Virus record (IMG/VR): IMGVR_UViG_3300025715_000026
Coordinates: 2,428-66,427 of that record
Length of the DNA: 64,000 nucleotides
Direction: 5' to 3' (one strand)
Origin: a virus
Lineage: Duplodnaviria; Caudoviricetes
Positions 14,695 through 26,534 of the stretch are shown piece after piece. The translations under genes and the position numbers were made by a program. The notes under the pieces are model-generated. The model saw only the letters and a program-made list of their open reading frames with translations, did no database searches and was not told the DNA's origin. Positions within the stretch are counted from its first letter, which is position 1. Each line of letters begins with the position of its first letter.

Positions 14695-15285
14695 CTACAG
14701 GCCGATGTACAGCGTCCCGACCATGTAGGCCCGGACCATCGTCACCGCGCTGAGGGTGATGGCACCGCTGGGCCAGAAGAGCCGGACCTGGAAGGTCTCG
14801 GTCGCCTTGATCGGGTACGGGCTGCCGTCCGGCTGGACGAAGGGGTAGTATTCCCGAACGCTCGGGGACCCGTTCGCCAGGTTCGGGCTGGCCGCCGCGC
14901 CGGAGCCCACGCCCTGGAGCGAGGTGCCCTGCGGGACGCGGCTCAGCGGGACCTGGAGCCAGATCCGCTGGGTGCCGAAGCTGAACTCGAACACCCCGCG
15001 AGTGTACAGCAGGATGTGGTCGGCCACGACGGTCCCGATCTGGACTTCCAGCTGGAAGCCGTGGAGATCGAACATCTGCGGGTTGGCCAGCTGGCCAGCC
15101 TGCGAGAGGTTCGTGTCGGCCTCGGTCTTCCGGACCGCCGACGCGTTCAGCTGCCCGATGGGAACCTGGAACAGCCGCAGCTGGTTGGTGGCCGCCGCCA
15201 GGATGTTGTCCGTGTCGTACAGGGGGTTCCGGAGGGCACGGACGTACCCTGCCGGGGCCGGCTTGGAGACGACTACTGACCTCAT
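14695..15285 (-). CDS. Putative major capsid protein (single jelly roll, 196 aa)
   Basis: Very strong RBS (AAGGAGGAAGG); beta-rich with PLYD, LFQVPIGQ, KTEADTN and terminal VRAYMVGTLY strand; centre of structural operon; two paralogs at 59-60 kb. Confidence 0.6.
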   Translation of the reverse strand: MRSVVVSKPAPAGYVRALRNPLYDTDNILAAATNQLRLFQVPIGQLNASAVRKTEADTNLSQAGQLANPQMFDLHGFQLEVQIGTVVADHILLYTRGVFEFSFGTQRIWLQVPLSRVPQGTSLQGVGSGAAASPNLANGSPSVREYYPFVQPDGSPYPIKATETFQVRLFWPSGAITLSAVTMVRAYMVGTLYIGL

Positions 15286-15355
15286 CTGCCTTCCTCCTTC
15301 TGAGCCGGCGAGCGCCGGCCTCAGTGAGCTTGCCCCTTTCCGCCCAGGGGCGTTG

Positions 15356-15383
15356 CGGGGGGCCGGGCCATCCCGGCCCCCCG
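15356..15383 (-). promoter_or_regulatory. Perfect 12-bp GC hairpin upstream of the 196-aa capsid gene
   Basis: CGGGGGGCCGGG-CCAT-CCCGGCCCCCCG. Confidence 0.5.
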
Positions 15384-15397
15384 TATGCGGATCTTGC

Positions 15398-16417
15398 TCA
15401 GATCACCTGCGCCGAGGGGACGTCGGCCATGCCGGGCTGGAGGTAGTCCGACATTCCGGGCTGGAGGTAGTCGCCCACCCCCGGCTCCATGAAGTCGGCG
15501 GTCCCGGCGGGCAGCATGTCGCGCAGCCCCTGCCGGGCCAGCTCGGCCTCGACCGCCTTGTCCACGGCCGCCTCGACCTGCGAGGGGAGGGCACCCATGC
15601 CGCTCACGCCCACGGCGGTGGCGACCTTGCTGGTCAGCGAACCGGCCGGAGCGGTGGCCGCCTGCTTCTTCAGCAGGTCCAGCACCAGCGTGTTGACCGT
15701 GAAGGCCACGCCGCCGATGAGGAAGTTCTTGGCCAGGCGCTTCTTGCCGAACCAGCCGGCCGCGCCGGAGGCCACCGCAGCGGCGGCCAGGTTGACCAGG
15801 TACTTGCCCCACCCGGTCTTCAGGATCTCCGGGGTCACCTTGGCCACCGGACCCCAGTTCATGACCACGTTCGGCAGGGCCACGGAGAGCAGCCCGCCGC
15901 CGGTCACCTCGGCCGCCTCGATGAAGGTGTCGACCTTCAGCAGCTCCTTGAAGGACTCCTTGAAGCTCGCCATGCCCTTCTTGGCGAAGGTGCCGGCGTT
16001 GGCCGCGAAGGAGTAGCGCTTGCCATACTTCCGGCTGGCACCCCTGGTGCCGAGGCGCGAGAAGTAGCGGTGGACCGAGGTGCCCGCAGCCGCCACGGTG
16101 ATCTTCTTGCTCGGACGAGCCTTGAAGATCTTGCTGGCGGTCTTCTTGGCGGCGGCCTTGAAGGAGCGCTTCACCCCGCGCTTGCTGCTGCCCTTTCTCT
16201 TCCAGAGCTTGGCGGCGGCCTTCATGGACTTGCCAGCCTTCATCTGCTTCCCGACGAACCTCGCGTAAGCGGAAACCTTCCTTGCCATCTTCCTTCCCTT
16301 TCTGTTCAAGCTTGGCCGACCCCCCGTAGATGGCCAGCCGGCGAGCGCCTCCAGCTCCTGGCGGGAGAGCTTCACCGGCCTGATGGGCGGGTTCAGCACG
16401 ATTGCTTCGACTGCCAT
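15398..16417 (-). CDS. Virion protein with basic N-terminus, hydrophobic middle and acidic repeated C-terminus (339 aa)
   Basis: K/R-rich first third, TM-like helices, SGMG motif, three D-x3-PG repeats; directly upstream of the capsid gene. Confidence 0.65.
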   Translation of the reverse strand: MAVEAIVLNPPIRPVKLSRQELEALAGWPSTGGRPSLNRKGRKMARKVSAYARFVGKQMKAGKSMKAAAKLWKRKGSSKRGVKRSFKAAAKKTASKIFKARPSKKITVAAAGTSVHRYFSRLGTRGASRKYGKRYSFAANAGTFAKKGMASFKESFKELLKVDTFIEAAEVTGGGLLSVALPNVVMNWGPVAKVTPEILKTGWGKYLVNLAAAAVASGAAGWFGKKRLAKNFLIGGVAFTVNTLVLDLLKKQAATAPAGSLTSKVATAVGVSGMGALPSQVEAAVDKAVEAELARQGLRDMLPAGTADFMEPGVGDYLQPGMSDYLQPGMADVPSAQVI

Positions 16418-16428
16418 GCGAAACCTCC

Positions 16429-16478
16429 GAAAGAAAAAGCCCCAAGCAAGCCGCCCTTCGGCAGCCGGCTTGGGGCTA
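16429..16478 (-). terminator. Intrinsic-terminator-like hairpin plus U-tract in the capsid-operon leader
   Basis: Minus strand AGCCCCAAGC...GCTTGGGGCT then TTTTTCTTT, ending just before the GGAGG RBS. Confidence 0.65.
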
Positions 16479-16537
16479 CAAGGCCCCTACGAGATGTCTG
16501 CAGGGCGGTCAGCCCCGCGCTCATGGTTTCCGGGGAT

Positions 16538-16574
16538 ACTCTAGCAATCGAACATCCCCTTGTCCAGCCCAATT
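16538..16574 (-). promoter_or_regulatory. Left-arm promoter P3 (capsid operon)
   Basis: AATTGGGC-TGGACA-N17-TAGAGT; 17-bp block identical to 26850-26866. Confidence 0.65.
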
Positions 16575-16613
16575 ATTCGGCTTTTCAACCTCCCTTCACG
16601 CCTGGGCCAACCG

Positions 16614-16685
16614 CTATCCGTGGATCCACGCCTCGCCGTCCGGGCCTGCCTTGACGGCGTGCGTTGTTGGTGTCATACGGGTGCA
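16614..16685 (-). pseudogene. Displaced original 3' end of the 452-aa virion gene (includes the predicted TnpB guide)
   Basis: Reads (V)HPYDT then, after a ~50-nt deletion, THAVKAGPDGEAWIHG* versus VHPYSQ...THGVRAGADGEAWIHG* in the intact gene. Confidence 0.85.
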
Positions 16686-16830
16686 TCGTTCTCCAGGACT
16701 TATGCATTGTCAGGCTCCTGCCAGCGCAATGCTGCCTGGTTCCTGCTTCATCGCCAAGCTGCTTATGGCTCTGCAGGCGTTTTGCGTCTCCGCCGAACTG
16801 GCGGCGACAAGGATGTTAATGGCCGCATTG
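16666..16830 (-). ncRNA. Predicted TnpB omegaRNA (scaffold overlapping tnpB 3' end; guide starting about 16685)
   Basis: TnpB omegaRNAs derive from the element right end and use the flank as guide (established); right-end-like GCATAAGTCCTGGAGAACG at 16687-16705; boundaries approximate. Confidence 0.55.
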
Positions 16831-18011
16831 AGATCGCGATCCATTTTTAAGCCGCAAGAGTCGCAGGCGTACTCCCTATCGGACAGCGCCAGGCGATTCT
16901 TCACGCGCCCACACGCCGAGCATCTCTTGCTTGATGGGTAAGTCCGCGAAGCTACTGCCAGCCGAGATCCGTATTTCCGGGTTTTGTATTCAAGCATATG
17001 CCGGAATTCAGCAAATCGCGCATCGGCCACATGCCGTCCGAGAGAACGGTTCTTCAGCATCCCCTCTACGCACAAGTCCTCAATCGCCACCAGGCCGTGG
17101 TTTTTGGCCAGGTGGGTAGTGAGCTTATGCAGAAAGTCTGCCCTGGCATTGTAAGCCCTCCGATGCGCGTTCCCGATTCGGGCGATGAGCTTGGCGCGGT
17201 TTCGCCCTCCCTTCTTGCTTCGCTCCAGCTTCTTGTTGAGAATGCGAGTCCTGCCCTCTAGCCTGGCCAGGGGGCGCGGGGCCACAAAACTCTGGCCCGT
17301 AGACAGGACGGCAAAAGTCTTAACGCCCAAATCAACCCCCACCGATGGCTTGCCGTTCGGGGCAGGGGAACACGCTGGAAATTCGCAAGATACCGCCAGG
17401 AACCACCTGCCGTATCGCTCTATGATGGTGGCCCACACAATCTTCCGCCCCGCCGGGATGTATCCGCGTTCTTTGAGACGGACCCAGCCTATTCTGGCAA
17501 GCCTGGCGCTTGTAACATCCACCTCCACCCCGCAAAGCCGGAAGGATCCGCGCCCCTCGCGCTTACGTTTGAATTTTGGGAATCCTGGCTTTTCGCCAGA
17601 CTTGACTCGCCGAAAAAAACGGACAAACGCCCGCGCTAGATCGGCCAGGGATTCCTGTGGCACCCACTTGCTAACATCGTGAAGCCAACAAAGCTGGTCA
17701 TTCTTTAACGCCAGAAGTTCACGATGCTGAGCTATGGGGTTTGTGCCCTTGCCTGTCTTCTCGTATTCCTCAATTCGACGAGATAACCCCCAATTCCAGG
17801 CGAAGCGAGCAGCGCCCGCCGCTTTAGCCAGCGCCGTGCGCTGCCTGTTGTTGGGGTCTAGTTCGACCCGGAAGTGGCGGTATTCCACCTCAGCCATGAA
17901 TCCAGGCTTCTCCGTCTGCTCCTGCGCGAACGCCGTGTGTGCCGGGAAGAGTAATGATGGTCTTTCCGTCCACAGTGACGACCTTCTCTGGTTTTTGCGA
18001 GTAAGGATGAA
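16686..18011 (-). mobile_element. Solo TnpB element (IS200/IS605-IS607 superfamily) carrying a recoded host-gene 3' end; no TnpA
   Basis: Lower-GC block bounded by TGGG at 18015-18012 and the displaced gene tail at 16685. Confidence 0.7.
16710..17897 (-). CDS. tnpB: TnpB RNA-guided endonuclease (395 aa)
   Basis: HTH-like N-terminus (ELDPN...ARFAWNWGL), GFPKFK, RuvC-I VGVDLG, RuvC-II IEDL, C4 zinc ribbon CSACG/CDSCG, RuvC-III DRDLNAAINI; start re-assigned to ATG 17897. Confidence 0.95.
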   Translation of the reverse strand: MAEVEYRHFRVELDPNNRQRTALAKAAGAARFAWNWGLSRRIEEYEKTGKGTNPIAQHRELLALKNDQLCWLHDVSKWVPQESLADLARAFVRFFRRVKSGEKPGFPKFKRKREGRGSFRLCGVEVDVTSARLARIGWVRLKERGYIPAGRKIVWATIIERYGRWFLAVSCEFPACSPAPNGKPSVGVDLGVKTFAVLSTGQSFVAPRPLARLEGRTRILNKKLERSKKGGRNRAKLIARIGNAHRRAYNARADFLHKLTTHLAKNHGLVAIEDLCVEGMLKNRSLGRHVADARFAEFRHMLEYKTRKYGSRLAVASRTYPSSKRCSACGRVKNRLALSDREYACDSCGLKMDRDLNAAINILVAASSAETQNACRAISSLAMKQEPGSIALAGA

Positions 18012-19248
18012 CCCAAATCCTCCCGGCTTTCTGACTCCCCTTCGGCGGCTCGTAGCTCTCTGCCGGCGCTTTCCCCATGCCGACCAGCACGACCCGGCCG
18101 GTGACCTTGTTGTCGCCGGGGCCAAGCCGCAAGATGGTGCGCTTGACGCTCTTGGGGTCGCAGCCGTGGATCTGGCGGTAGAGCTTCAGCCCCTTCTGGA
18201 AATCCGCCGTCCGGGCAATGCTGCCCATGTCGGTGCCTGGGTTGGCCTTTGCGCGGGCGCTGGCGATCTTCGCCCACCGGCGCTCCAGGTCACGGACGTG
18301 AGCCTGGCGCTTGCGCTCCAGGGCCGCCCTCTCCTTGCGAGCCTGGGCCAGCTGGGACTTGTACGTGGTGGGGTTAGGCATGATGCCGCTCCAGCCTGCC
18401 CGCTCGATGTCCTCTGCGGCCTTCGTGTATGTCGCCTTCCGCTGCCTGCGCGACACGGACGCTGCCAGGCTGGCAGCGTGCGCCCTGGCGAACAACCGGT
18501 GGTCCCGCCCCTGCCCCAGCAGCCCCTGCTTGTCCGCAAGTTTCGCCCTGGCCCTTTCGGCCAGCTCCATGCGCTTGTGCCACTTGGCGCTGGGGTTGGG
18601 CTCATACCCCAGGAACTTTCCGCAGCTCTTCACGTAAAGAAACTGCTTCCCGCGAGCGCGTTTCTTCATCCGCCGGATTTTGGATTCCAGTTCTCCTGGC
18701 ACCCGGTATTCGCCCGTTTTCCCATTGGGGAAACGAACCTGGACATAAATGCTGGGGTCTCCAGGCTCGCGATACAGCCTCGTAACCGCCGGGGGAGCCG
18801 CCCGCTTCTTGGGGACATTCGGCACAACCATGAGCAGGGGGTTACGGCCGGAGCGAATCACGAACCTGTCCCGAGCCGGATTTGTCGCCAGCATTCTCAC
18901 CTTTGATCCTCCTACGTCCCATGCGTCCACGTCGCCGGGCCACCCCTCGTACTCTATGACGCTGGCAGCCTTGCGCAGAATCCCTGGATCTGCCTTGAAC
19001 GCGCCGGTCAGGGTGAGCCGCTCAAATCCTCGCGGCACGGTGCGGGTTATGGCAACGGCTCCGCTGCTCCTAATTGCGAGGGCGACCAGCTTGTGCTTGT
19101 CGAGATCTCGGGACACCTGCCTCGGCGTGAGCCGGAACCTGGCGGGATATTTGCGGACGTATCCGGCGTGCTCAATGTCCCCGGCGTCAACCAGCGTCCC
19201 GGAGGGAAAGAGCCAGTAATGACGAAGCGGGTCCTGCATGGCCATCAC
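17890..19248 (-). CDS. Basic NP-motif virion core protein (452 aa) with recoded C-terminus
   Basis: RBS TAGGAGG; K/R-rich; five NP motifs; codons become AT-rich at third positions from about 18040. Confidence 0.75.
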   Translation of the reverse strand: MMAMQDPLRHYWLFPSGTLVDAGDIEHAGYVRKYPARFRLTPRQVSRDLDKHKLVALAIRSSGAVAITRTVPRGFERLTLTGAFKADPGILRKAASVIEYEGWPGDVDAWDVGGSKVRMLATNPARDRFVIRSGRNPLLMVVPNVPKKRAAPPAVTRLYREPGDPSIYVQVRFPNGKTGEYRVPGELESKIRRMKKRARGKQFLYVKSCGKFLGYEPNPSAKWHKRMELAERARAKLADKQGLLGQGRDHRLFARAHAASLAASVSRRQRKATYTKAAEDIERAGWSGIMPNPTTYKSQLAQARKERAALERKRQAHVRDLERRWAKIASARAKANPGTDMGSIARTADFQKGLKLYRQIHGCDPKSVKRTILRLGPGDNKVTGRVVLVGMGKAPAESYEPPKGSQKAGRIWVHPYSQKPEKVVTVDGKTIITLPGTHGVRAGADGEAWIHG

Positions 19249-19255
19249 GCGCCTC

Positions 19256-19426
19256 CTATTGCTTGCCTTCGCCCTGGGTATTGATGAGCACGAAGTTCCG
19301 CAGCTCCTCGCCGGCCATCGTCCTCATCCGCTTCTTGCCCTCGGGCGGCTGAGCCTCGTAACACCGGGCCACGCGCTTGACCCACTCGCGCCGGGCGAGG
19401 AGTAGCTTGGCGATCTGCTCGGACAT
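19256..19426 (-). CDS. Small protein (56 aa, MSEQIAKLLL...), not in the ORF track
   Basis: AGGAG RBS; fills the operon gap; resembles the C-termini of the two upstream genes. Confidence 0.7.
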   Translation of the reverse strand: MSEQIAKLLLARREWVKRVARCYEAQPPEGKKRMRTMAGEELRNFVLINTQGEGKQ

Positions 19427-19435
19427 ACCGCGCTC

Positions 19436-20893
19436 CTACTTGCTGTGCTTGCGGACGAACAGCACGAGCTGCTCGGGGCTCATCCGGCCCATGAGCTTCT
19501 TGATGTGGTCCGGCTGCGCCCGGTAGAACTTGAGGACGGCCTTGGCGATCAGGTCGCGCCGGGCGGGGTTCCGGGTTATCTTGCCGGCCGCCACGGCCGC
19601 CGCCTCGGCGCTCAGCGCCCCCTGCCAGTACTCGGCCGCGTCCTTATGCTTGGCCTTCAGGTCACCGGCCAGGAGGCGGGAGTAGCGGGCCTGCTCTCGC
19701 TTGTGGTAGGCCGCTCCGGGGTTCTTACAGATGCCGGTCTTCGGATCGACGGCGATCCCCGCCGCCTTGGCCGCCGCGATGGCCGCCGCTCTTGACGGGA
19801 AGCTGCGCACGCCTCGGATGTCGATGATCTGCTCGCCCCAGGTCATCACCCACCGCTGGTTGACCGGCAGGTACTGGATGCGGAACGGGGGGCTCTTGTG
19901 AACGCCGGGGTTCTTTCTCAGCCGCTCCATCTTGCTGCGCTGGCATATGACATACCAGAGGCCGGCGTCGGGGATGCTGATGACCTTGACCAGCCCCTTG
20001 TGCCCCCTCCGGGCCTGGATGTTGCGTTGGCGGGCCGCCTCCCGGCGATCCTTGAAGGGACCGGCGAGCACCTTGATGCCTCCGGCCATGCCGGGGTTCC
20101 TCCCGGGATTCTTGTCCAGCCCCCGGAACGCCACCTCGTCGAGCACCGGGATGAGCTTGGCGTACAGGGCAGGGCGGGTGATCTTGAGCGTCGGCCGGTC
20201 ATAACCATACTGGCCGCCGCCGCCCTGCCGCAGCTCCTTGTCCAGCCGGACCCACAGCCGGTAAAGCTGCTTGTCGGTCAGCTTGGTCAGGTCGGGGTTG
20301 CGGCGAATAAACACCGCATAGTGTGGGTGTCCCTTGGGCCGCGAGGGCACCTTGCGTGCCTCCGCCTTGCGGTGCTGGCGCTCCGCGACCTTCTGCGCCA
20401 GATAGACCGCGTGCTTCTTCGTGAAGAACCATCCAGGGCCGGACCGAACCACATCTGCCCCCATCTGGCTCCACCGACGGCGCTTTCCGGGATTCCGGTC
20501 GACCTTCTGCCCCGCCGCGTACTCGTCCAGGCGGCGGGTGATGATCCGTCCGCGATGGACGCCGATCAGGTCGCGCATGTTCATCAGGGCATTGAAGAGG
20601 GGCTTGCGGATCAGCGCCTTGCCCTCCAGCCCCTGGGCGTTGAAGCCCTCCTTGCCGGTCAGCGGGGCCGTGGTGTACGGGGAGCGGCCGACCAGGGCCA
20701 TCGTGTTGAGGCCGCCCTGGGCCAGCTCGCCCAGGGGCACCTCCAGGATGGCCTCGCGGTAGAACCAGGCGTCCTTGGGCCACGGCCCCTTGGGGCGGGC
20801 TCCGATCTTGAACCACGGCTCCTCAAGCAGCTGCGCCAGCAGGGGCCGGATGTTGGCGTGGGTGACGATCTCGGGAACCTGGAAACGCGCCAT
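19436..20893 (-). CDS. Basic NP-motif virion core protein (485 aa)
   Basis: K/R-rich; seven NP motifs. Confidence 0.75.
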   Translation of the reverse strand: MARFQVPEIVTHANIRPLLAQLLEEPWFKIGARPKGPWPKDAWFYREAILEVPLGELAQGGLNTMALVGRSPYTTAPLTGKEGFNAQGLEGKALIRKPLFNALMNMRDLIGVHRGRIITRRLDEYAAGQKVDRNPGKRRRWSQMGADVVRSGPGWFFTKKHAVYLAQKVAERQHRKAEARKVPSRPKGHPHYAVFIRRNPDLTKLTDKQLYRLWVRLDKELRQGGGGQYGYDRPTLKITRPALYAKLIPVLDEVAFRGLDKNPGRNPGMAGGIKVLAGPFKDRREAARQRNIQARRGHKGLVKVISIPDAGLWYVICQRSKMERLRKNPGVHKSPPFRIQYLPVNQRWVMTWGEQIIDIRGVRSFPSRAAAIAAAKAAGIAVDPKTGICKNPGAAYHKREQARYSRLLAGDLKAKHKDAAEYWQGALSAEAAAVAAGKITRNPARRDLIAKAVLKFYRAQPDHIKKLMGRMSPEQLVLFVRKHSK

Positions 20894-20905
20894 GATGTCC
20901 TCCTG

Positions 20906-22795
20906 TTAACGCCGCTTGGCGTTCTTGTAGGCGTACCCGGCCAGCTCCATGACCGGCTCCTTGGCCAGCCGCTCGGCGTTGGCCGGGGCCTGGGCCGCCA
21001 GGAACTTGAGCACGGCCCCGGCGATCACCGGGTCGATCTTCCGCCCGTCGACCACGCCGGCCTGGCCGGACGTGGCGATGGTACGCAGCTCGCAGATGCG
21101 CGGGGTGAGCAGATATCCGGGGTTCCCCGCCGGAGGCTTCAGGAACATCTTGTGTCGGGTGCTAATCGTCACCCACCGGGCCGACGCCGGAGCGCCTGCG
21201 CGGCCGGGGTGGACCGAGGCGACGTACCCCTCGCGGTTCTTCTTGGCAACATACTTCTCGGCCTCCGCCTTCGACTTCCATCCGAGGACGACCGAGTCGC
21301 GGCCCTTGCCGCCGGGGACCAGCGTGCGGCCGGGGTTCCACCGCACCCCGCCCTTACGACGCTCGGCGTCCATGTCCGGCAGGGTCCGGACGATCCACCT
21401 CATCTCGGACTTCAGGGCCTTCAGGACCGCCGTGCGGATCGCCGGCTTGTCGGGTATCCCTGCGATCCGAATCTGGTCGGCCACGTGCCGGCCGTGCTTG
21501 GCGTCGAGGAACAGGCGCACGGTGTAGGGCTTCCACCCACCCTTGAGCAGCTCCTTGAACGCCACCTCCCAGGCGTATTCGGCCACGGCCTGGCCGTACA
21601 TCTGAGCCGTGGTGCCGAAGAATCCCCACGCCTCATTGGCGGTCTTGAGGACCAACGGGTCGCCCTTGCGGGCCTTGGCGGGGTTGCGCCCCAGGCGCAT
21701 TCCGTGCTCCTTCTCCCACCTCTTCCGCCGCGCATCGCTGGCCATTGCGCGGGTGATGTGGTCCTTGGCCCAGGCAATCGCGGCGGCCTTGGAGTCGGCC
21801 CCGGACCCACCAGATGAAGCCGCACCGTGGATCGTATTCGTGCGCCGGACGGCCCAGTGCCACGAGGGGTATCGGCCGCCGGAGCTCTCGACCGCGTAAA
21901 CGTATCCCCGGCCGAACGGCACCCACTTGATGCGCGGGTTGGGCACGACCATGAGCAGGGGGTTGGCCGCCACCTTCATCTCGGTCTTCCTTTCCGCCGC
22001 CGTGGCCTTGCGGACCAGCACGGCCTGAACCTCGGTGCCACCCTTGCACTTGCCGCCGACCGTTGGCACGGCCTTCGGGCAGGCGATGATCATCTTGTGC
22101 GCCCCGCTGCCGGGGCTGATGACCCGGAAGCTGCCCTTCTGAAACTCCTTCGGGCTGGCGATGCGGACGCGGGCGAACCGGGCCTTCTTCCCGCCGAACT
22201 CCGCGCCAGCGCCCGCGAGCTGGTGCGTGCCGGCCTTCATGGCGCGGGCAACGGCCGTCCGGCGGGCCGCCTTGACCTTCGCCGACAACGGCCGCCCCAC
22301 AAGCGCCCGCATGGCGGGATTGGCGCGGATGCCCAGGAGCTTCTCCGTGCGCTTGATCTTGCCGATCTGCTTCTTGATGCCCCCCAGCGCCCGGCTCCAC
22401 AGCATATCCCGGCCGGCGGCCGTCTTGGCCCGCAGGGTCTTGCCCATCGTGTCGGCCAGCTTGAGCCTGGAACGCTCAAGCTCTTTCACGCGGGCCAGGT
22501 ATGCCCGCAGCTGCTTCCTCGATGCGCGAACCAGCACGCCCTTGCGCGTCACCATCTTGGGGTTCAGTCCCAGCATTGCCATCCCCGCTTTCGTTGCCAG
22601 GGCCTTGGTGGCTACTCCGGCCCCCGCGCTGGCGGCCCCCTTGAGCAGCGCCAGGCCGGTGCCCACCACCAGGGCCTTTTTCGTCGAGTCGTCCTTCTTC
22701 CGCTTCCCGCCGGGGTTCAGGCCGAGCAGGCCCATCCCCGCCTGGGTCGCGACCGCCTTGGCGGCAAAGGCCGCCACGTCACGCAGTGAGGCCAT
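20906..22795 (-). CDS. Basic NP-motif virion core protein (629 aa)
   Basis: K/R/A-rich; eight NP motifs; GMG near N-terminus. Confidence 0.75.
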   Translation of the reverse strand: MASLRDVAAFAAKAVATQAGMGLLGLNPGGKRKKDDSTKKALVVGTGLALLKGAASAGAGVATKALATKAGMAMLGLNPKMVTRKGVLVRASRKQLRAYLARVKELERSRLKLADTMGKTLRAKTAAGRDMLWSRALGGIKKQIGKIKRTEKLLGIRANPAMRALVGRPLSAKVKAARRTAVARAMKAGTHQLAGAGAEFGGKKARFARVRIASPKEFQKGSFRVISPGSGAHKMIIACPKAVPTVGGKCKGGTEVQAVLVRKATAAERKTEMKVAANPLLMVVPNPRIKWVPFGRGYVYAVESSGGRYPSWHWAVRRTNTIHGAASSGGSGADSKAAAIAWAKDHITRAMASDARRKRWEKEHGMRLGRNPAKARKGDPLVLKTANEAWGFFGTTAQMYGQAVAEYAWEVAFKELLKGGWKPYTVRLFLDAKHGRHVADQIRIAGIPDKPAIRTAVLKALKSEMRWIVRTLPDMDAERRKGGVRWNPGRTLVPGGKGRDSVVLGWKSKAEAEKYVAKKNREGYVASVHPGRAGAPASARWVTISTRHKMFLKPPAGNPGYLLTPRICELRTIATSGQAGVVDGRKIDPVIAGAVLKFLAAQAPANAERLAKEPVMELAGYAYKNAKRR

Positions 22796-24974: not shown

Positions 24975-26534
24975 TCAAATCCTCCAAGACCTCTTCTCCC
25001 AAAACCGCTCGGGCTCCCAGCCCAGGCGGCTGCGGGCAACCGTGCTGTCGCAGCCCACCCACTCGCCGTCGATAAGCAGGCGAGGGTACACGTGGCTGAA
25101 ATCGGCCGGTCGGCGGGGATCGGCCTTGATCGTTGCAAACTCGGCGGGGATGCCCAGGACCATACCGATGGCGGCGATCAGGGTGGAATGGTCGTCGCAG
25201 TTGGAGAGAATCGCCCCGTCCTCAGCAACGAAGTTGTGCGTTCCTGCCACCGAAATGTCACAAACCTCTGCCTCGCCAACGTCGTCTATTTTCTTGATGG
25301 TTATGTTCTCAACCCCCGGCTGGCGCTCCAGGTGGCAGCGCCTGTTCTCCAGATCCTTGCAGGCGATTCTCCACATTGGGCGCTGGATGCGCCCTGCGCC
25401 CCTGGGGTTCCGCTGATACCAAGGAGAAACCGGCCGCCCCAGGATCATGTGCATGACGATCAACTGGTGGGCCAGCCTGTCCGAGTTGGTGTTGTATATC
25501 TTGGAGGCCCGCTCATGCCAAATGCCTCCCGGCTTGGGGATGTAGGCATCCCCCAGGCCGTAGGCCAAAAGCAGAACCTCCATTGCGTCTCGCGACAGGG
25601 ACAGGTATTCGTCGGGAAAATGCTTGACCCACGAGGTTCTTCCGAACATTTCATGGAGGCGCTTTGTGAGCCAGCTCGCCTTAAGGTAAACTAGGCGAAC
25701 CCCATCCTTGCGAAGACGCAGGCGATATGGGATGCCGAGCTGGTCAAGGCAACGGCAGGTGTAGTCTATCAGCGTCTCGTTCTTGTTGGCGATCTCGGCC
25801 CTAAACGGTTCGCCGGAGAACCCCTCTGCCGTGTATAGCCCCTCAATGAAGAGTTGCGCGGCCGAAATACCCGGCGTGCCATTAAGGCTTGGGAGCCGGT
25901 GGGCGCACATTACGCCGCGCATGTACGGCCTGGAGAAACCGGCAATGCCTGCAAGCGGCTCGCGGTGCGGGGTGAAGCGCGAGCTCTTCAGGGTCCAGAT
26001 CTTGTGGTCGGGCGTACAGAAGAAGCTCTGCCCCGAACGCAGGCGTACCCGCTGGACGGGCTTCTTCCCCTTGTCTATCCACTGCGTCACCGGGCTAAAC
26101 ACCCACTGCCGCCCATCCATCGCGTAAGACAGGGCCTCGTAATCGGAGAAGTTCTCCCGAATGTCCCCGACCGCCTTTACCGCATATTGGCCGCTCGCCT
26201 TATCCCGAAGGATGATCTTCTGGCTCAGTGGGATGCAATCGCCAGCCTTGCGCTGAATCGTCCGCAGCGGGGCCTGTACCAGCTCCATGCCCTGCGGCAC
26301 GCCGTCCTCGTCGGCGGCGGTCACCGGGTCGGGCACGTATTCGATGTGCTTCTTGACCCACTCCAGGATGCGCTCGCCCTGGCCCCGGAAGTTGCGGGGC
26401 ATGCCGAAGGCGAACGGGGTGGCGATGCGAATGAACCCCCAGCTCTTGGCGGCTGCGACCGCCAACTCCCTCATGTGCTGGATGGTTCTCTCAGTTCCCC
26501 GCCACCCGGAGGGGATGTACTCGTAGAGGGGCAT
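24975..26534 (-). CDS. Transglutaminase-like cysteine protease (173 aa after splicing) interrupted by an intein
   Basis: Extein join gives GD-CDD; downstream FSHVY and CDST supply His and Asp of a Cys-His-Asp triad. Confidence 0.85.
   Translation of the reverse strand: MPLYEYIPSGWRGTERTIQHMRELAVAAAKSWGFIRIATPFAFGMPRNFRGQGERILEWVKKHIEYVPDPVTAADEDGVPQGMELVQAPLRTIQRKAGDCIPLSQKIILRDKASGQYAVKAVGDIRENFSDYEALSYAMDGRQWVFSPVTQWIDKGKKPVQRVRLRSGQSFFCTPDHKIWTLKSSRFTPHREPLAGIAGFSRPYMRGVMCAHRLPSLNGTPGISAAQLFIEGLYTAEGFSGEPFRAEIANKNETLIDYTCRCLDQLGIPYRLRLRKDGVRLVYLKASWLTKRLHEMFGRTSWVKHFPDEYLSLSRDAMEVLLLAYGLGDAYIPKPGGIWHERASKIYNTNSDRLAHQLIVMHMILGRPVSPWYQRNPRGAGRIQRPMWRIACKDLENRRCHLERQPGVENITIKKIDDVGEAEVCDISVAGTHNFVAEDGAILSNCDDHSTLIAAIGMVLGIPAEFATIKADPRRPADFSHVYPRLLIDGEWVGCDSTVARSRLGWEPERFWEKRSWRI
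25200..26237 (-). mobile_element. Intein (346 aa) with LAGLIDADG homing endonuclease
   Basis: Cys1 CIPLSQK, block B CTPDHKIW, EN motifs LFIEGLYTAEG and LLLAYGLGDAY, block F VCDISVAGTHNF, terminal Ser-Asn followed by Cys+1. Confidence 0.92.

Follow-up and report, generated by a model that had tools for sequence, protein, structure and literature searches.

A transposase-less tnpB module between a foreign and a displaced native gene end: a candidate RNA-guided homing cassette in a virus of the Caudoviricetes

In fungal mitochondria, mobile open reading frames (ORFs) that encode endonucleases have carried foreign C-termini into resident genes and left the native C-termini displaced (PMC3630166). 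These 'gene hybrids', which comprise atp6 of Allomyces macrogynus as well as atp6, atp9, cox2 and nad3 of Glomus sp. (PMC3630166), are the closest known analogue of the locus described here. In the intronless homing of phage T4 (SegF, SegG, SegB, Mob), the allele in cis carries resistant substitutions and flanking markers are co-converted during co-infection (PMC13565253). RNA-guided nucleases of the TnpB family have likewise been linked to homing and transposon maintenance (10.1101/2023.03.14.532601) and to a gene drive of IS200/IS605 elements in multicopy plasmids (PMC11870625). TnpB of the IS607 IStron cuts the vacant site, and homologous recombination restores the element; for the Clostridium botulinum enzyme, CboTnpB, the target-adjacent motif (TAM) is 5'-TGGG and the RNA scaffold ends in UCGG (10.1101/2023.11.20.567912). 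In the literature on RAGATH-18-type IS607 TnpBs, the TAM is AGGAG or GAGGG and the cuts lie 16 nucleotides (nt) (non-target strand) and 22 nt (target strand) from it. A 2026 review considered 'non-restorative homing' into co-infecting phages only theoretically possible, citing a plasmid experiment as support (PMC13565253), and we found no paper on a TnpB cassette that carries a spare gene end. Here we analyse a locus of this layout in a 64,000-nt stretch of IMG/VR virus record IMGVR_UViG_3300025715_000026, in which a tnpB gene stands between two versions of the end of a viral gene that we call gene X.

The window, i.e. the whole stretch analysed, covers most of the 66.4-kb record, which is rated complete by CheckV. 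The features of the locus all lie on the minus strand, in the order gene X, tnpB, scaffold of the guide RNA (omegaRNA), a native gene piece in guide position, the native gene end, a promoter-like site with a hairpin, and the next operon. An original prediction, made from the letters alone, had described the tail of a 452-amino-acid (aa) gene, a tnpB and a second copy of that tail, and had read the arrangement as a homing drive with built-in self-immunity; its statements on the sequence all match the letters at 16614-19248. Gene X (17890..19248) encodes these 452 aa and ends in WVHPYSQKPEKVVTVDGKTIITLPGTHGVRAGADGEAWIHG and a stop. Its C-terminal domain of ~115 aa is common to about a dozen metagenomic proteins, which end WVHPYD.KPEKVVT.DGKTIIT.PGTH.V..G.DGEAWIHG. 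The product found no match in Pfam, in PHROGs, in a Foldseek comparison of its AlphaFold model (predicted local distance difference test score 70) with viral structures, or in the ESM Atlas, and the earlier label of a virion gene finds no support in these comparisons.

The mobile-ORF hybrids and the window have their parts in common: an in-frame C-terminus of foreign origin, then the gene for an endonuclease, then the native C-terminus in displaced form. The native piece is 91-98% identical to that of a close relative in the hybrids and ~100% here, while the inserted piece shares 64-81% with the native one in the hybrids and 67% here; both arrangements can be read as endonuclease-driven horizontal transfer. 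The hybrids, however, depend on protein-only, self-recognising LAGLIDADG or GIY-YIG enzymes and reside in organelles, whereas the nuclease here is RNA-guided, the host is a prokaryotic virus, and the native end doubles as a putative guide template. With the C. botulinum IStron (10.1101/2023.11.20.567912) the locus shares an omegaRNA, a putative guide taken from the right flank and, plausibly, a G-rich target motif (TGGG). Unlike the IStron, whose scaffold ends in ..CGG, it has no TnpA, left end or group I intron, its last scaffold base is A, and the integrity of the gene is provided by a carried DNA copy of its end instead of RNA splicing. The nuclease gene adjoins a conserved gene, as in the intronless homing of T4 SegF, SegG, SegB and Mob (PMC13565253), but the free-standing T4 endonucleases recognise their targets by protein and need no sensitive copy, whereas the guide-template copy must be kept here. 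Finally, the guide would record the insertion site as in the TnpB plasmid drive, where copies that lack the element suffer cleavage and inheritance is biased towards it (PMC11870625; 10.1101/2023.03.14.532601); those elements are complete transposons without a rescue copy, and the replicon here is a virus. We regard the locus as an RNA-guided form of an already known type of homing cassette, with cutting and spread proposed from its layout.

The in-use end of gene X provides the first line of evidence. Its last 48 codons and stop (17890..18036, SQKAGRIWVHPYSQ to EAWIHG) are AT-shifted, as had been noted earlier: the GC content at third codon positions (GC3) is 0.51, against 0.91 in the 101 codons upstream and 0.90-0.94 in neighbouring genes, and tnpB itself has 0.65. 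In Fisher tests on GC3, the tail differs from the upstream codons with p = 3e-8 and from tnpB with p = 0.08. The maximum-likelihood change point of GC3 falls at codon 405 (base 18036), and the alignment with an element-free sister virus, introduced below, breaks at 18035, independently of composition. In its final 51 nt the tail shares 67% identity with the displaced native end, or remnant, and 76% with the tails of two relatives of gene X (L003 and L004). Where its residues depart from those of the remnant (G/A, R/K, A/P), the exchanges are ones that occur naturally within the gene X family. No relative of the tail closer than 86% was found among 5.8 billion clusters. The tail had originally been taken for a recoded version of the native end, but 33% of its sites differ from the remnant while the flanking DNA differs from the sister by 1.5%, so that the difference cannot have arisen in place; the tail is a foreign homologue. 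Since tail and tnpB are both of foreign composition, we conclude that they arrived together, as one block of ~1.35 kb (18035-16686), from a lower-GC, unsampled donor.

The TGGG at 18015-18012, proposed as the junction of the element, is indeed present, but the foreign DNA begins at about 18035/18036, 23 nt upstream of it. A simple insertion between TGGG and TGCAC is therefore contradicted by both the alignment break and the GC3 change point. On composition alone a boundary at TGGG is only ~6-fold less likely than one at 18036, and the alignment break agrees with 18035. The position of the block start suggests that the left junction is a crossover within homologous coding sequence and not a precise TAM junction.

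The second line of evidence is the element-free sister virus, which was recovered when the contigs of four public runs were aligned to window positions 15000-19600. It is represented by contigs of 36,642 nt (run X8, wastewater, 2025) and 5,341 nt (run X6, sludge, 2022) from two studies, which show 23 and 26 differences from the window over 15000-16664 (98.4-98.6% identity). In both contigs the alignment ends at 16664 and resumes at 18035, with 94 nt in place of 1370 nt of the window, and the identity of the sister's gene X to that of the window is ~90% over 18035-18237. The 94 nt correspond to one base plus 31 codons, exactly what an uninterrupted gene would have between 18035 and the Thr codon. 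It follows that the sister has a single, whole gene X that ends as the window's remnant does. Indeed, the closest relative of gene X, protein P0002, which is encoded on the 36,642-nt Logan contig, ends ...RIWVHPYDNKPEKVVTVDGKTIITMPGTHAVKAGPDGEAWIHG, and its last 16 residues equal the translation of the remnant, not the in-use tail. The expectation that element-free relatives would carry the remnant's version of the gene end is hence borne out, the match being read at the protein level. A more distant relative, L002, is just as simply arranged, gene X being followed by the intergenic region and then the next operon; alignment-based scans yielded as further relatives of gene X only L002-L008, all distant and element-free. 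When IMG/VR was scanned for exact patterns of the native gene end and of the empty site as predicted, no match was obtained, and single-query protein-pattern scans of viral contigs likewise gave none. Taken together, these comparisons show that a foreign block of ~1.35 kb replaced the end of gene X after the split from a sister with 98.5% identity.

Five runs, drawn from four studies of 2016 and 2022, contained 100% of the sampled words of the arrangement that carries the block, and an independent contig of 229 nt (run X12) spans 16574-16802 without a single difference, so that an assembly artefact can be dismissed. The sister and the window also differ elsewhere in gene X: 132 nt (44 codons) are absent from the sister within the gene (18237-18370), and near its 5' end (18870-19253) 382 nt are replaced by 14 nt. 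The N-terminal part has a lower GC3, of 0.56-0.8, which makes the gene a mosaic beyond the tnpB cassette.

Behind tnpB, the native gene end persists in two pieces. The first (16665..16685, TGCACCCGTATGACACCAACA), unique in the window, codes for (V)HPYD.., and 15 nt of it are compatible with the VHPYDN of the sister protein. The claim of a second copy of VHPYDT was correct for the HPYD.. piece at 16685-16665 but not for the Val codon, of which only 'TG' is left, preceded by an A. The second piece (16614..16664, ACGCAC...GGATAG), which is contiguous with the sister's gene X, is the orphaned native 3' end and translates to THAVKAGPDGEAWIHG and a stop. That this downstream copy is the displaced end of the native gene had been proposed, and the sister confirms it by running straight through, its protein P0002 ending in THAVKAGPDGEAWIHG. 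A recount of the last 16 residues also agrees with the earlier figures, 13 being identical between in-use tail and remnant and nine of those 13 using another codon. Between the two pieces (junction 16664..16665) 50 nt of the native tail have been lost, as follows from the sister contig and from the codon count. The reported deletion of ~50 nt thus finds independent support in the sister, which has 94 nt where the window has 1370; 23 of the 94 lie upstream of the end of TGGG and 71 after it, and 21 of these 71 are kept in the remnant. The left edge of the deletion lies 15-21 nt from the scaffold end. In the 66-kb genome, the remnant is the sole other match to the C-terminal domain of gene X (E 4e-5).

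The third line of evidence concerns what the remnant adjoins. The omegaRNA scaffold (16686..16812) overlaps the 3' end of tnpB and ends ..GUCCUGGAGAACGA. Its right end was placed by alignment to 12 relatives, in all of which, as in 16 copies from two archaeal genomes, the scaffold ends ..GGTTTCGGGGAACGG (..AACGG) and is followed by unrelated sequence. The window reads ..GTCCTGGAGAACGA at this end, directly followed by TGCACCCG, and 23 nt separate the tnpB stop from the guide-position piece. With a scaffold end at 16686 supported by 28 related elements, the native gene piece falls into the guide position. The original proposal that the ancestral sequence is held there as a guide is in keeping with this, since TGCAC... 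comes next after 16686, at the very place where the sequence after ..AACGG varies among the 28 elements. RNAalifold predicts 22 consensus pairs, 14 of them with compensatory change; in the window scaffold, for example, CCAGG/CCUGG stands for CCGAA/UUCGG of the others. The window's matches in Rfam, to Transposase-2 (29.8 bits, E 0.0015) and RAGATH-18, are sub-threshold, and the RNA is assigned to neither; in the loci of ten relatives no omegaRNA family reached the Rfam gathering threshold.

The nuclease itself appears intact. The tnpB gene (16710..17897), single-copy in the genome, encodes 395 aa when read from the ATG at 17897, with a GTG at 17888 as another possible start and the stop at 16712-16710. 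Its product matches HTH_OrfB_IS605 (E 1e-14), OrfB_IS605 with the RuvC domain (2e-22) and the Cas12f1-like TNB domain (7e-22) of Pfam, all passing the cut-offs, and aligns to structures of ISDra2 TnpB with E 1e-60. In line with the earlier statement on the RuvC acidic residues, D189, E273 and D355 fall on the catalytic positions of ISDra2 TnpB, and the zinc finger CxxC..CxxC (C326, C329, C345, C348) is invariant. A TldR, i.e. a nuclease-dead repressor derived from TnpB, is ruled out by the intact triad. The ATG (17897-17895) overlaps the stop of gene X as ATGGCTGA, and because of this overlap the translation of tnpB is probably coupled to that of gene X. The nearest genomic relatives of TnpB, 45-51% identical, come from Asgard archaea, Actinomycetota, Chloroflexota and Planctomycetota. 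Beside tnpB in five of the relatives (L014-L017, L052) stands a resolvase-type TnpA (Resolvase, E 2e-20) whose stop overlaps the tnpB start, which places the TnpB clade in the IS607 type. In the window no serine-recombinase TnpA is present, its place being occupied by the tail of gene X, and comparison with relatives revealed no left-end similarity upstream of tnpB. An IS605-type reading with TTCAT or TGCAC as TAM was rejected, since it would make the right end identical to the TAM and is at odds with the IS607 type of the relatives. A scan of 16300-18200 by Rfam E-value found no intron family that would point to a group I intron, and the gap between gene X and tnpB is only 0-8 nt.

The TGGG of the in-use copy (18012..18015) forms part of the Trp-Val codons, which are invariant among relatives, and the homologous TGGG of the empty allele would be TAM-like. 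TGGG had been named as the TAM of an IS607-type TnpB, and it is indeed the one published for CboTnpB (10.1101/2023.11.20.567912). Among related elements, the match between the near-identical Actinomycetota copies L016 and L017 begins right after AAAGGG and GTGGGG, respectively, and the left flanks of 13 archaeal copies end in AGAG, GGAG, AGGG or AAGG. A G-rich TAM for the window's TnpB is plausible because the Trp-Val codons precede the guide match in the empty allele. TGGG is found in the in-use copy as well, and this copy mismatches the guide at positions 2, 5, 8, 11 and 12 of the first 12; natural relatives depart from the guide at only two or three of the 12. Moreover, the in-use copy reads Ser-Gln where all relatives have Asp/Glu-x. 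Its excess of guide mismatches, at four synonymous sites, is suggestive but not significant.

These observations are compatible with the following course of events. The omegaRNA would carry TGCACCCGTATGAC.. as its guide and direct the ribonucleoprotein, during co-infection, to cut an element-free gene X ~16-22 nt past TGGG, where the guide sequence is expected in the empty allele. Repair of the break from the carrier genome would copy the block in and co-convert the upstream tail of the gene, with the left crossover upstream of the cut, here at ~18035; such co-conversion would account for a left boundary 23 nt upstream of TGGG. The carried tail would keep gene X whole and, given its mismatches with the guide in the seed, would spare the carrier from being cut. 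As the guide template, the remnant would have to be kept. The 50-nt deletion, 15-21 nt past the scaffold end and hence in the expected cut zone, and the terminal G-to-A change are possible scars of repair. The layout is as predicted by homing stimulated by double-strand breaks with co-conversion, and we give about even credence to the reading of the locus as a transposase-less tnpB-omegaRNA module of IS607 lineage that acts as an RNA-guided homing 'gene hybrid' cassette. Somewhat more tentative is a bolder version, in which the locus would be a working natural home-and-rescue drive between viruses that cuts the empty allele, copies in an uncuttable spare end and keeps the native end as guide template; it would then belong to a widespread, undescribed class of phage TnpB cassettes, the RNA-guided counterpart of the mobile-ORF hybrids, and self-targeting would have left its scars in the deletion at the cut zone and in the G-to-A change.

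Several findings weigh against the homing cassette. The match of the guide to the sister's empty allele is established at the protein level only. The last scaffold base is A (..AACGA) where nearly all relatives have G, and a stem-loop of ~40 nt in the relatives is reduced to a few bases. Related elements point to an NAGRG-like TAM as much as to TGGG. No relative closer than 86% identity turned up for the tail, and none closer than 56% for TnpB, so that the searches yielded neither a donor nor a second insertion. Pattern, alignment and cluster searches found no second host lineage with the cassette, which leaves one lineage only. A search of other viruses for a tnpB flanked by a duplicated gene tail had been suggested; among 160 related TnpB loci (80 cellular, 80 viral) scanned for a gene tail that stands upstream of tnpB and recurs downstream of it, no second case was found.

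Much of this would also be expected of a relic. An IS607 element may have inserted between TGGG and TGCAC, whereupon a rare recombination, illegitimate or homeologous, with a diverged relative restored the gene end and removed the left end together with tnpA, leaving TnpB as an idle passenger and the arrangement as a frozen accident. The missing left end and tnpA fit this history, as do the change of the core dinucleotide GG to GA at the right end, the deletion in the remnant and the shortened scaffold hairpin; the lineage is single and without close TnpB relatives, and the carrier samples all have the cassette in fixed and identical form. On the other hand, the tnpB reading frame and catalytic residues are intact and the helices of the omegaRNA are kept by compensatory changes, the common foreign composition of tail and tnpB indicates joint arrival and not two steps, and this arrival is recent relative to a sister whose flanks differ by 1.5%. 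We consider a relic unlikely, although it is the foremost alternative.

Clearly less probable is that TnpB and its omegaRNA serve as a weapon, destroying the genomes of element-free sisters in co-infected cells while the cassette itself is rarely or never copied. All that points to targeting of the empty allele under homing does so equally here; phage homing endonucleases are documented to kill competitors (review PMC13565253), and carrier and sister come from similar sludge and wastewater habitats, though not together in the runs examined. Yet the block was acquired by recombination at the site that the guide specifies, as homing predicts, and flanks 98.5% identical to the sister would permit repair from the carrier. 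No carried tail would be needed had an ordinary TnpB element inserted into a gene end that was already duplicated in tandem or had a paralogue. This reading explains the sole other scan match (viral loci L167, L178 and L180) but for the window is scarcely tenable and already contradicted, as the sister genome and L002 have a single gene X with the intergenic region directly after it, the virus's own genome holds no other copy of the domain, and the composition of the in-use tail is foreign.

The three viral loci just mentioned were rejected as cases of a carried tail: there, two paralogues stand in natural tandem and tnpB interrupts the second, the pair being present in 67 element-free loci as well. 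The TnpB element of L167, L178, L180, L200 and others (IMG/VR viruses of ~80-160 kb and low GC) differs from that of the window and interrupts a 66-aa gene. Its site is occupied in 13 of 80 loci and empty in 67 (L191, L193, L199-L278 range). In some of the occupied loci 19 nt are missing immediately beyond the right end, i.e. in guide position, and the left flank differs as well between occupied and empty alleles.

Downstream of the remnant lies the native intergenic region (16429..16566), with a promoter-like site (16566-16538) followed by a very stable hairpin and U-tract (16477-16429; -42.8 kcal/mol, z -4.2) directly before the ribosome-binding site of the operon that follows (ATG at 16417). 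The arrangement is kept in the distant element-free relative L002 (5425-5560), and the hairpin leader may be of the attenuator type and not merely the terminator of gene X. Three minus-strand proteins of 452, 485 and 629 aa (17890-22795) show an excess of Asn-Pro: Asn is followed by Pro in 5 of 8, 7 of 14 and 8 of 13 cases, respectively, 8-13x the expectation, mostly as basic-N-P-G/A/L. A longer motif, NPLLMVVPN, is found in the 452-aa and 629-aa proteins and also in metagenomic relatives; it may function in processing or as a linker. An ORF of 519 aa (24975-26534), with weak matches to intein-splicing (E 2e-8) and transglutaminase-core (E 2e-4) domains, may represent an intein within a protease-like gene. 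Almost no protein of the 66-kb virus is matched by Pfam or PHROGs, and neither terminase nor portal was seen among the large ORFs tested; the virus is a member of a poorly known group from sludge and digesters.

Elements that insert into genes face the problem of preserving them. IStrons solve it by splicing, and the locus described here represents a third solution, in which the element brings a DNA copy of the gene end that it displaces. If active, it would be a natural RNA-guided cut-and-rescue drive between viruses, and the cassette a compact natural template for programmable homing cassettes. Such activity would also help to explain the frequency of transposase-less tnpB genes in phages and would generate mosaicism at gene ends.

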